Shown piece after piece: positions 17,170 through 31,399 of a stretch of 64,000 nt of DNA (positions are counted from its first letter, which is position 1; every line of letters begins with the position of its first letter). Both the position numbers and the translations under genes were made by a program. This DNA is from Octopus vulgaris (taxonomy: Eukaryota): assembly GCA_951406725.2 (NCBI GenBank), contig OX597821.1:106888001-106952000 (forward strand). The letters run 5' to 3'. The notes under the pieces are model-generated. The model did not search any database. It worked only from the letters and a program-made list of their open reading frames with translations, and was not told where the DNA came from.

Positions 17170-17226
17170 TTATAATGGCTTTGTCTGAATTACCACAAGT
17201 ATGTAAGTAATGAAACTTCCAATCAT
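17170..17226 (-). CDS. GRL constant terminal exon (TM7b, MIGSFITYILVVIQTKPL*), locus 2
   Basis: Acceptor tctcttttctgtttttcag; TYhhhhhQ motif; TAA stop; not in the ORF track. Confidence 0.85.
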   Translation of the reverse strand: MIGSFITYILVVIQTKPL

Positions 17227-29200: not shown

Positions 29201-31399
29201 AAAAAATTCTATCTTTGGCCAGCATATTAAAAGATACCTTTAAAGGTTAAATTTATAAACAACATATAAACAAGGGCAAAAGAAAAGAATTCTAATGCCA
29301 AATATGCCGAAAATAGACAAATCGTCAATAACCATATAATTCAGCACTATACGCACGCGTCTCGAAGTAAACCGACAGACATTTCTAAAAAAATTCCGTT
29401 ATTATCTTATCGGCCCCGATTTCAGAGGTAATTCATACGAATTTTCTCTTCGTCAGTGATAAATACGGTATGAAATAAATAAAATACTTACATATACCCA
29501 TGGAAGAAGCAAACACTAAGTCATGAGCACAATTAAGTACCCCAAATATAGACAAAATAGATATTTTTCAGCATACCTCGAGACACGTGCGATCGCACTG
29601 AAAACTGACGTAGAGTGAGAGAGTCCGGTAGTGAACACTATAAAATTTACATCTAATATAGGATGAAATTCTTTGGAAAGAATTCTATCAATGGCCAGCA
29701 TATTAAAAAATATCTTTAAAAGTTAAATTTATAAACAAATTATAAACAAGGGTAAAAGATATAAATTCTTATGCCAAATATGCCGAAAATAGACAAATCG
29801 TCAAGAAGCATATAATTCATCACGATTTCAGAGTTAATTCATAAGAATTTTCTCCTCGAGAATAAATAAGAATTGTTTATAAATTTAACCTTTAAAGGTA
29901 TTTTTTGATACGCTGGCCATTGATAGAAGCTTTTTCAGCATGTTAAAAGAACCATTATGGGTAAACTTAAACAATAATATTTATAATAATGCGTATAATT
30001 ATAATTAGGGTATAAATATAATTAGGGTTCAGCAAAAACATTTGCCTCAACACATACCGAAATTTAGAAATAGCATCCAAGAAAACTAGGTGTGGTAGGG
30101 AAATAGCTAGTTCTCTTGGCTGCTATTTCTAAATTTCGGTATGTGGTGAAGCAAATTAAGGGCAATTCCTTTCGAGTTGCTTCAGATTAATCATCTAAAG
30201 TTTGGTAACATTCGGATTGTAATACAGCCTGTTATACTCCCACTTGTCACATTCTCCAGTTCCAGGAGGATCTCTGAAAATATTTTTCTACTTACGATTA
30301 CATAGTCACTTGACTAATAACCGAACACTTACTATCAGCCACTAAGATATACAACTTATAATCAACAACTCTGTTTGATTTCGTTGGTTTCCAAAAAATA
30401 CAAATATTAGACAGAACTGATATCAAATAAATATCATATAAGACTTACCGATTTATTTAAACGAATTCCACTCCAAATCATTATGATCTCATACATCAGA
30501 TAATATGATGCGGTAGATATTAAGTAAATAAAATTATGTAATTTATTTTCGTATGATTCATTTATAATTCCGTAAGTTGCAATACAACATCCTATAACAC
30601 TGCTAAGTACGACATATGCTGTGGAAAGACGTAATGATTCATTGAGTAATTTCAGCATTCTACTCAAAGTATCATGAGTTTTACATATTTCTGTAATGTC
30701 TATCTCTCTCTTGAAGAAAATAAACTTCTCTGATTGCTGTTCCTTTACATAGCGTTGAATATCACTCGTCACTTTGTTAAACTCATAATTCAGTGTGCTT
30801 CCGATCATTAGATTTACGTAAAATTCAAGTTGTAGGGAAGCGAGTGACATGCAGTTAAATGCAACATATAGTGCGAAAACCAGAAGGTGATAAGTATTGT
30901 TGATTGGTATAGGAAATAGAATGAAACGAATAAAATTTTGACTGGACTGTGAGAATATATAATCTTGAATCATGATAGCAGTTAACGGGAACAATATAAA
31001 TACAAATAGTGATTTATATGAAAAGAATATATTAGAGTTATAGAATTTTCTATCATCTTCTTTAATTTTAAGTTCGGTGAATGCTTCAATTAGTTGTGTG
31101 TCGTTCGGTTTCTTGAAGAGTTTCATCAGACCATACATTGTTAAAAAGATCTGGTAAAATATCGTGTAAATATAAAAAAGTGATTCATCAGTTGATCTAT
31201 TTCTCATTTGTATTGCACTAATAGTGTTCAAAATTGGAGCTACAGTCAAATGTAAGCAATACACAGCGTAAAAACTATAGAAAAAGATTGAGATAAATTT
31301 GTGAGATTTTAATGACGTTGTATTCGCAAACGATCTCCAAATATTTATTTTACGATAAAATTCCAGCAGTTTAAAGATTTGTGTTTCATTTGATTTCAT
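17170..31399 (-). CDS. Complete spliced GRL gene model, locus 2 isoform B: join(30449..31399,20083..20151,19084..19173,17170..17226), 388 aa
   Basis: All junctions GT-AG and phase 0; the C-terminus reads ...ILVFLNRLTTESHGIDVGGCFVITPSSTLT|MIGSFITYILVVIQTKPL*, matching the GR/GRL TM7 signature and the known layout of three C-terminal phase-0 introns. Confidence 0.8.
17995..18231 (+). mobile_element. Penelope-like GIY-YIG C-terminal remnant in GRL intron 3 (copies at 41090..41325 and 62816..63052)
   Basis: TLRKISTLHKEQIR..PLSEHI...FKFFPFYKC...ERLNKQTFFIEKYRTCLN resembles the PLE endonuclease tail. Confidence 0.65.
19084..19173 (-). CDS. GRL constant exon 3 (90 bp, ILVFLNRLTTESHGIDVGGCFVITPSSTLT), locus 2
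   Basis: Acceptor ttcttatgtattacag, donor ACG|GTAAAT; typical GR penultimate exon with a G-x-x-V-G-G-x-F-x-I motif. Confidence 0.85.
19740..19990 (+). mobile_element. tRNA-derived SINE with V-domain-like body in GRL intron 2
   Basis: A-box tggcttagtgg, B-box ggtttcgattcc; body ttgagcaaaacact...ctgcgatggactggcgtcctgtcca. Confidence 0.8.
20083..20151 (-). CDS. GRL constant exon 2 (69 bp, VHSITQSIHYMQFQGVDQEVVAK), locus 2
   Basis: Acceptor ttttctttttcgcatccag, donor AAG|GTAAAT, phase 0/0; fits the segment after TM6 in GRs. Confidence 0.75.
20240..20425 (+). mobile_element. R4/Dong/NeSL-type LINE restriction-like endonuclease fragment (copy at about 43317..43505)
   Basis: LYDFPIKGDQMLEHNRPEI*IV...CYIVDVSCPFDQRIVEKE resembles the HNRPD...D RLE motif. 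Confidence 0.7.
20458..20577. repeat. (AAT)n microsatellite (also 21117..21262, 43530..43642, 44240..44408)
   Basis: Seen directly. Confidence 0.95.
20577..21116. mobile_element. About 540-bp interspersed element embedded in an (AAT)n array (copy at 43641..44239)
   Basis: Non-coding, higher-GC block with long (AAT)n directly on both sides. Confidence 0.55.
21275..21410 (-). mobile_element. Degraded Nin/Deu-type SINE fragment (copy at about 44420..44555)
   Basis: Reverse-complement similarity to the 5974..6200 core (atcgaccccagtg...ctggtactta...aaagttgacctcg). Confidence 0.6.
23629..24424 (-). pseudogene. GRL first exon type A, copy 2, frameshifted
   Basis: 796 bp versus 951 bp (net 155-bp deletion near 23905); split over ORFs 23861..24424 and 23509..23847; donor GTGAGT retained. 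Confidence 0.85.
27215..27441 (+). mobile_element. Same SINE, unit 2 copy
   Basis: Equivalent position and TSD. Confidence 0.85.
29395..29468 (-). ncRNA. Type I hammerhead ribozyme-like motif (Penelope type); copies at 8216..8286 and 52423..52492
   Basis: Minus strand: ttatca-CTGACGA-AGAG[aaAATTCgtatGAATTac]CTCT-GAAA-TCGGggCCGA-TA-agataa; stems I-III can pair, with one A-A mismatch at the base of stem I. Confidence 0.6.
30449..31399 (-). CDS. GRL variable first exon type B, copy 2, intact
   Basis: 951 bp open; donor TCG|GTAAGT; 8 amino-acid differences from copy 1 by eye. Confidence 0.85.

Follow-up and report, generated by a model that had tools for sequence, protein, structure and literature searches.

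In insects, several gustatory receptor (GR) genes join alternative large first exons to a common set of small exons. In Drosophila Gr39a, four large exons are joined to a set of three small ones, Gr23a and Gr28b are built likewise (PMC2204066, excerpts), and Tribolium TcasGr214 has 30 variants (PMC6720082, excerpts), so the variable/constant GR design is already known. The same arrangement of tandem variable first exons and shared constant exons is found in the vertebrate clustered protocadherins, an unrelated protein family; cephalopod protocadherins have no shared final exons according to the excerpted text of PMC9068888. Octopus chemoreception has so far been described mainly through the acetylcholine-receptor-derived chemotactile receptors (CRs), of which O. 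bimaculoides has 26, clustered and expanded (PMC9068888 and PMC11526382, excerpts). GR-like proteins (GRLs) are known in Mollusca (PMC7746228, excerpts), and lophotrochozoan GRLs with the Pfam 7tm_7 domain (Lottia, Haliotis, Biomphalaria, Owenia and Argopecten) are full-length homologues of the octopus protein described below that carry the S7 motif, and they are 11–18% identical to it. Two fused lophotrochozoan gene models hint at repeated first exons.

We report here that an octopus has the variable/constant GR design of insects, within a cluster of megabase size that contains about 62 intact variable exons. As in Gr39a, TcasGr214 and Anopheles AgGr9a-n, alternative large first exons ending at a GT donor would be joined to small conserved exons, and as in insect Gr loci (PMC2204066, excerpts) exons are gained, lost and decaying. 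Like the CRs, the products are clustered, expanded candidate chemoreceptor ion channels of an octopus; unlike those acetylcholine-receptor-derived pentamers, they have a predicted insect odorant receptor (OR)/GR fold and are encoded by about 62 intact exons. In the literature searched, with subscription journals and supplements outside its scope, we found neither a description of this design in molluscs nor a paper on octopus GR-like genes. The word "gustatory" has no occurrence in the cephalopod genome paper PMC9068888, and the excerpts of PMC12635824, PMC5850775, PMC6408891, PMC7067487, PMC11526382 and PMC11682238 do not describe octopus GRLs. RefSeq already contains the joined proteins under loci called uncharacterised, and UniRef gives one O. 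bimaculoides entry the name "Gustatory receptor".

Variable and constant exons of the window

The window is the 64,000-nucleotide stretch C8:106888001-106952000 (host genome size 2.8 Gb); coordinates above 106 million are positions on contig C8 and smaller numbers are window positions. Its features are:

30449..31399, minus strand: variable first exon B2 (B below), intact, 317 codons, putative helices S0-S6
31475..31481, minus strand: TATA-like box 82 bp 5' of the B2 ATG, weak promoter evidence
23629..24424, minus strand: variable exon A2, a pseudo-exon with a 155-bp deletion and frameshift, donor retained
20083..20151, minus strand: constant exon E2, 69 bp, putative cytosolic continuation of S6
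19084..19173, minus strand: constant exon E3, 90 bp, putative S7a and hairpin
17170..17226, minus strand: constant exon E4, 57 bp including the stop, putative pore helix S7b with motif TYhhhhhQ then T
2295..3245, minus strand: variable exon A1, intact
C8 106880658, 106879665 and 106877442: cassette serving A1, 7-11 kb beyond the left window edge
9258..10208, minus strand: variable exon B1, intact
53462..54412, minus strand: variable exon B3, intact
46806..47542, minus strand: variable exon A3, broken by several deletions
43160..43228, minus strand: constant exon E2, adjacent tandem unit
42161..42250, minus strand: constant exon E3, adjacent tandem unit
40265..40321, minus strand: constant exon E4, adjacent tandem unit
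61992..62048, minus strand: constant exon E4 of a further unit, its E3 and frameshifted E2 lying just beyond the right window edge

The initial annotation described two divergent first exons, each with its own ATG and an N-K-S end at a phase-0 GT donor, and this anatomy holds for B and A1: both are open for 951 bp (317 codons) from the ATG to an L-N-K-S end at such a donor, and their proteins are identical at 105 of 316 positions. The single downstream set of 69-, 90- and 57-bp exons proposed for each unit was likewise found. An AG acceptor precedes each constant exon (20083-20151, 19084-19173, 17170-17226), three phase-0 introns flank these exons within the unit, and the spliced reading of B with E2-E4 is 388 aa long with no internal stop, as is that of A1 with the cassette beyond the left window edge. 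E2 at 20083..20151 also contains an internal CAG at the site where RefSeq isoforms of a paralogous cassette use a second acceptor. The view that the flagged unit has two variable exons stands for B, which is intact, but not for its partner; A2 is a frameshifted pseudo-exon of 796 bp that lacks 155 bp, so this unit has a single working variable exon and the best variable/constant examples lie outside the window.

The window contains three tandem units spaced 21–23 kb apart and 84–96% identical over long blocks. Only in A1/B1, the cassette of which lies outside the window, are A and B both intact. These units belong to seven recent 20-28-kb tandem B-(A)-cassette copies at C8 106.80-106.96 Mb; A and B are intact in one of the seven (A1/B1), B is intact in two more, and the cassette is broken in two. 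The window thus shows a B-A-cassette unit that was recently multiplied in tandem, next to a far bigger array, and many of its copies are decaying. Some of the exon breaks consist of a single-base indel within a homopolymer run and may be errors of the assembly.

The cluster and its constant cassettes

A genome search with A1 gave 75 matches, all of them on C8 at 106.378-107.240 Mb. A word-index protein search with A1 retained none of 644 candidates, but the profile search did find relatives. The full reading, in which variable exons were found by iterated profile, spanned C8 106.230-107.292 Mb and gave at least 95 variable-exon loci (at least 62 intact) and at least 17 constant cassettes over at least 1.05 Mb, counts that are lower bounds because the reading was confined to that interval. 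Of these, 92 variable loci, 59 of them intact and 33 broken, lie together with 16 E3 exons in 1.012 Mb (106.280-107.292 Mb), and the further 50 kb to the left holds three intact variable exons (106.233-106.256 Mb) and one cassette (E3 at 106.262 Mb). Unlike insect Gr loci, the octopus cluster comprises at least eight multi-exon arrays on both strands, its exons fall into five deep clades, and entire units have also been copied in tandem. The arrays have 19, 12, 7, 5, 4, 3, 2 and 2 intact variable exons per cassette. The largest, on the minus strand at 106.977-107.240 Mb, has 34 variable loci (19 intact, 15 broken) in 262 kb and one cassette (106974032 / 106973055 / 106971234), which is identical in DNA to the three constant exons of the window. 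In a quick tree the deep variable-exon clades follow cassette type, and within a 36-exon clade exons from different cassettes are interleaved.

The intact variable exons end at one aligned codon, with a GT donor in 58 of 59 and GC in the other, and protein identity within arrays drops to 29–45%. Median dN/dS is 0.35–0.64 within older arrays and falls below 1 for 150 of the 171 pairs in the largest array and for 65 of 65 in the 12-exon array, which shows that the older arrays are under purifying selection. In the 5-exon array and several recent pairs dN/dS is at least 1 at low dS, and constraint is not demonstrated there. In one orthologous pair between O. sinensis and O. bimaculoides, 275 of 318 variable and 66 of 71 constant residues are identical.

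That constant exons are absent between B and A, as the initial annotation had claimed, was borne out by profile scans of the gaps in three units, made in all frames without a splice-site filter, with true exons scored leave-one-out and with antisense controls. No E3 was found there (best gap score 5.6–13.0, true exons 43.9–84.5), nor E2 (0.8–5.8 against 12.7–44.0) nor E4 (11.9–16.6 against 22.0–49.2), and the gap scores equal the antisense-control level and lie under every left-out true exon. Across the cluster, profile scans likewise found no private constant exons between variable exons. E2 and E4 are short and poorly separated in the two largest arrays, where the weakest true E2 (12.7) and E4 (22.0) overlap the background (13.0 and 19.3–23.9, respectively), so the argument rests on E3. 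E3 scores are bimodal: among 2331 candidates in 1.012 Mb, 16 exons score 54.6–92.1 and the next 8.8. With whole clades removed from the profile the held-out exons still score 34–77 and the background at most 13, a profile that includes other molluscs recovers the identical exon set, and E3 separates well, with a background of at most 24.7 and true exons of at least 43.9. Three genes at C8 106.28-106.37 Mb with one variable exon and a private cassette each serve as an internal control, and the E3 method detected their cassettes. E4 assignment is uncertain in two cassettes. Read-through of E3 into its intron gives an S7b-like stretch, which was judged a chance resemblance and not a real exon because it ends within a few codons in older cassettes.

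Isoforms, transcripts and upstream elements

NCBI alternative isoforms are built from transcript alignments. The RefSeq isoforms used here are computed models, placed on this genome rather than on their own, and the cluster proteins are 97–99% identical to Octopus sinensis RefSeq models, which points to an Octopus closely related to O. sinensis. Isoforms X1, X2 and X3 of O. sinensis LOC118764608 have three different variable ends on one constant part, the last 71 residues of which are identical to those of the window. These ends are 97–99% identical (98%, 97% and 99%) to exons at C8 107013140, 107006741 and 106995025, and match one another at 31–37 of 70 residues; they represent three of the 19 intact exons of the largest array, all at most 40 kb from the cassette. 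In LOC118764607, X1 and X2 begin with the most distal exon of a 7-exon array and X3 and X4 with another, on one constant part; O. bimaculoides LOC106880719 (X1-X3) has two variable ends on one constant part, X1 coming from the most distal exon. In the array joined in X1 of both species that most distal exon is 72 kb from the cassette. Some isoforms in both species (LOC118764607, LOC106880719) use a second acceptor 14 codons inside E2. In LOC118764606 the distal of two variable exons is joined to its cassette. These models support the joining of different first exons to the same block in transcripts, and the variable/constant reading proposed for one unit extends to the whole cluster and to RefSeq isoform sets of two Octopus species.

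A read search was made with the stretch 30100-31780 (4 of 21 runs, of which X1 and X2 are presumed to be RNA). Run X2 gave one 242-base contig of depth 5.5 that tracks a B-type exon between 30655 and 30447 and then has 33 letters more; the intron and E2 begin with the same two bases, so spliced RNA would diverge from the genome exactly at 30447. Run X1 continues past the B donor into the intron, and X1, X3 and X4 cover the B intron. A repeat lies at 30112-30157, inside the searched stretch. No A-to-E2 junction was found among the RNA and isoform data examined, and no RNA dataset was listed as containing exon B.

A TATA box had been assigned to each exon, and TATAAAA does stand 82 bp (B) or 88 bp (A) before the ATG in six of six window copies. 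As a promoter signal, however, it appears to be near background and would be weak evidence: a TATAAAA-type match occurs in 8.5% of random 70-bp windows, and among related exons it is as frequent at -350..-280 (10 of 24) as at -140..-70 (also 10 of 24). Gibbs sampling of 24 related upstream regions gave no shared motif (11.8 bits, shuffled 10.0–10.7). An invariant 11-mer is a candidate per-exon promoter element of one clade. It occurs 19 times in the 1.012 Mb, always on the sense strand of the largest array, and 18 of these occurrences precede a variable exon by 250–470 bp; 13 of these exons are intact and 5 broken. Within the 700 bp upstream of seven divergent exons it is, save for an overlapping 8-mer, the sole shared word family of at least 7 bases, and the matching intron control has no such family. 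The 11-mer is missing before A and B. Vertebrate protocadherins also have a short conserved element before many of their variable exons.

Predicted channel fold, mechanism and alternatives

The GR-like channel fold suggested initially is confirmed, for its first six helices, in the predicted structure of the variable exon. A model of exon B from a 50-row alignment (pLDDT 83) has six long helices and ends near the cytosolic end of S6, and among 48161 chains its top eight matches are all insect OR/GR chains (Z 13.7–19.3, the next being 7.4; 243–304 residues aligned, rmsd 3.5–4.2), so that the exon is predicted to have the S1-S6 fold of these 7TM ion channels. Foldseek with exon B gave no match at E <= 0.001, although OR/GR chains headed its list, and a profile built from variable exons only reaches E 1.4 at best against solved structures. 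The family profile with full-length relatives matches Gr64a over nearly its full length (E 1.4e-15) and aligns the constant part onto the C-terminal ends of Gr64a, MhOR5 and Orco; by this alignment the constant exons are predicted to encode the last part of S6, then S7a and the pore-forming helix S7b. A single-sequence fold of full-length P0140, the window-type model, had pLDDT 42.7 and was discarded, and the split S7 rests on sequence. Against Pfam 7tm_7 (cut-off 26.6 bits), three of eight joined models, tested in full or part length, pass (full-length P0143 at 31.6 and P0011 at 31.7, partial P0014 at 27.4), three are below the cut-off, and P0140 and P0146 have no hit; exon B alone scores 24.8 bits.

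The GR/GRL S7b motif (T/S)Yhhhhh(Q/K/E)(F/L/M) is diagnostic but not definitive (PMC7746228, excerpts). The octopus S7b fits three of its four positions (T, Y and Q), the last being T and not F/L/M, as in two other mollusc GRLs. Because this T occupies the S7b gate position, gating may differ from that of insect GRs. As the nearest named database relatives are lophotrochozoan GRLs, the octopus design likely arose independently of that of insects. In OR/GR channels the ligand pocket lies within S1-S6 and the pore is lined by S7b, while S7a and the cytosolic parts of S4-S6 form the anchor (PMC12635824, excerpts). This would make the pocket and part of the anchor variable and the pore constant. 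The original idea of a pocket swapped on a fixed pore and anchor is therefore kept for the pore helix, which is constant, but not for the anchor, which appears to be split, its S4-S6 part being mostly variable. Conservation among the variable exons is high in cytosolic S4/S5 (0.79–0.82) and outer S5 (0.81) and, in the largest array, lowest (0.43–0.48) in loop EL2 and in the outer parts of S3, S4 and S6; this split between cytosolic S4/S5 and outer S3/S4/S6 agrees with a variable pocket and a constant pore.

We consider it very likely that the architecture of variable first exons and shared constant exons holds across the whole cluster. Each large first exon would encode the N-terminus and S1-S6, and with them both the ligand pocket and the portion of the anchor formed by cytosolic S4/S5, and would close at the conserved phase-0 donor, which has no acceptor partner before the next three-exon cassette. 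Transcription would most likely start before one variable exon (we infer separate promoters), and the donor of the chosen exon would be spliced to the first downstream cassette, any other variable exons leaving as intron. The cassette would contribute the remainder of S6 together with S7a and S7b, the pore helix; the resulting subunit, of the 388-aa class, would combine a pocket of its own with a common pore, and the repertoire would expand through duplication of the first exon alone. The products are probably ligand-gated cation channels for chemosensation, with differing pockets on one pore; we infer that they act as tetramers, and a chemosensory role is quite probable.

The large exons might instead be internal, following a single non-coding leader exon common to all and selected by mutually exclusive splicing. 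Several exons in two plus-strand arrays do have acceptor-like pyrimidine tracts in the 160 bp that precede their ATG, but such tracts occur in 14% (11/14 pyrimidines) to 30% (10/14) of random 160-bp windows, A and B have none, and private leader exons would account for them too; with the 11-mer standing before each exon of one clade in the manner of a per-exon promoter element, a common leader seems improbable. We think it very improbable that only the exons nearest a cassette function and that distal ones are stranded duplicates or make truncated six-helix read-through proteins. The 33 broken loci among 92, the unspliced donor in run X1, and the lack of an annotated isoform, among the retrieved models, for exons more than 75 kb from a cassette would all fit; against this, open frames and donors are kept at 33–60% protein identity with dN/dS below 1, the read-through tails are 3–119 unrelated residues without the S7 motif, and the farthest exon of one array, at 72 kb, is used in RefSeq X1 of two species. 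That private end exons have diverged beyond detection, or that the layout is an assembly artefact, is hardly credible: E2 and E4 are short, with weakest true scores inside the background of the two largest arrays, and some breaks are the homopolymer indels noted above, but E3 is clearly separated and the same method detected the private cassettes of the three one-exon genes, while the tandem units differ by 4–16% and the isoform sets come from two other Octopus annotations.

Compared with separate promoters and shared cassettes, a different kind of alternative accepts the architecture and gives the proteins a non-sensory or internal role. This is unlikely in view of the birth-and-death of dozens of exons and of divergence centred on the outer pocket helices, a combination typical of sensory repertoires. 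What speaks for it is the cnidarian GRL NvecGrl1, which works in body patterning and development and not in sensing (PMC5850775, excerpts).

A wider reading, toward which we are somewhat more doubtful than inclined, is that the cluster is a second large octopus chemoreceptor repertoire of about 60 GR-like channels, larger than that of the chemotactile receptors and governed by protocadherin-style promoter choice, with a design that arose independently of insects, several times inside the cluster, and that may extend to other molluscs. If so, each sensory cell could choose one or a few variable exons by way of a conserved upstream element, isoforms with a common constant S7 could co-assemble as mixed tetramers, and splicing would bridge distances of up to 265 kb, or perhaps 525 kb in the case of an orphan exon at C8 106755497.

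The cluster adds about 62 intact candidate receptors from another channel family to the CRs. It is overlooked by gene callers and family searches: a Pfam 7tm_7 genome search gave five weak matches, none of them in the cluster, and RefSeq has a few "uncharacterized" loci. The shared cassette eases testing, since one probe reveals expression of all isoforms of an array, and knockout of one cassette would remove up to 19 receptors. The design occurs in an animal whose protocadherins do without the variable/constant layout (PMC9068888, excerpts), and the cluster suggests that the GR exon layout, with the pocket in one big exon and the pore in three small ones, has led to one design in two phyla.

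Splice sites of the variable and constant exons

The large variable first exons, which encode the N-terminus and helices S1–S6, are most likely joined by their donors to a cassette of constant exons, E2 to E4. This donor is GC in one intact variable exon (L072:5289-6299) and GT in all others, and an O. bimaculoides entry of the GC-donor type is joined to the cassette. In two species, some RefSeq isoforms splice to a second acceptor lying 14 codons inside E2, which shortens the S6–S7a link; these are paralogous E2 exons, and a CAG is present at the same position in the window:

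20083-20151: E2 of the window, with CAG at the position of the second acceptor

When E3 is read into its own intron, a hydrophobic stretch resembling the pore helix S7b is encountered (window 18997-19083, minus strand); it is not retained in older cassettes.

Displaced and broken variable exons

L046:7497-8495 (C8 106755497), plus strand: intact orphan variable exon
L056:6194-6638, opposite strand within the 7-exon array: broken variable-exon fragment
L057:4902-5366, opposite strand within the 7-exon array: broken variable-exon fragment

The closest relatives of the orphan exon (60% identity) and the next cassette on its strand both lie about 500–525 kb away, beyond minus-strand arrays, a position that suggests an inversion or insertion, or else very long splicing. 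The two broken fragments are small inverted duplications. In L003:5445-6396, the variable exon closest to the cassette of the 34-exon "big array", the sole break is a single additional base within a run of A; there are no further stops, and the break may be an assembly error.

Upstream regions and a decayed element

An invariant 11-mer containing inverted half-sites precedes 18 variable exons in the big array (G000:C8:107025176-107233475, L008-L029) by 250–470 bp, recurs at one further place within the array, and is a candidate promoter element. Five near-identical variable exons at L030-L032 and L069 (C8 107.250-107.276 Mb) have 250 bp upstream regions, close to the ATG, that resemble one common short repeat element, its type judged by eye. 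The decayed element at window 56373-57956 (minus strand) is probably what is left of a Penelope-like retroelement; its match to GIY-YIG is weak, with an E of 0.002 that falls short of the cut-off.

Related loci and other molluscs

Outside the cluster on the same contig, an open frame of 400 aa (G000:C8:24540979-24541569) that weakly matches the receptor family 7tm_7 could be another GR-like gene. Among the P0050 and P0030 gene models, that of Saccostrea cucullata has two variable-type parts and one constant part, and that of Littorina saxatilis a partial extra variable part, which hints that first exons are repeated in other molluscs as well.
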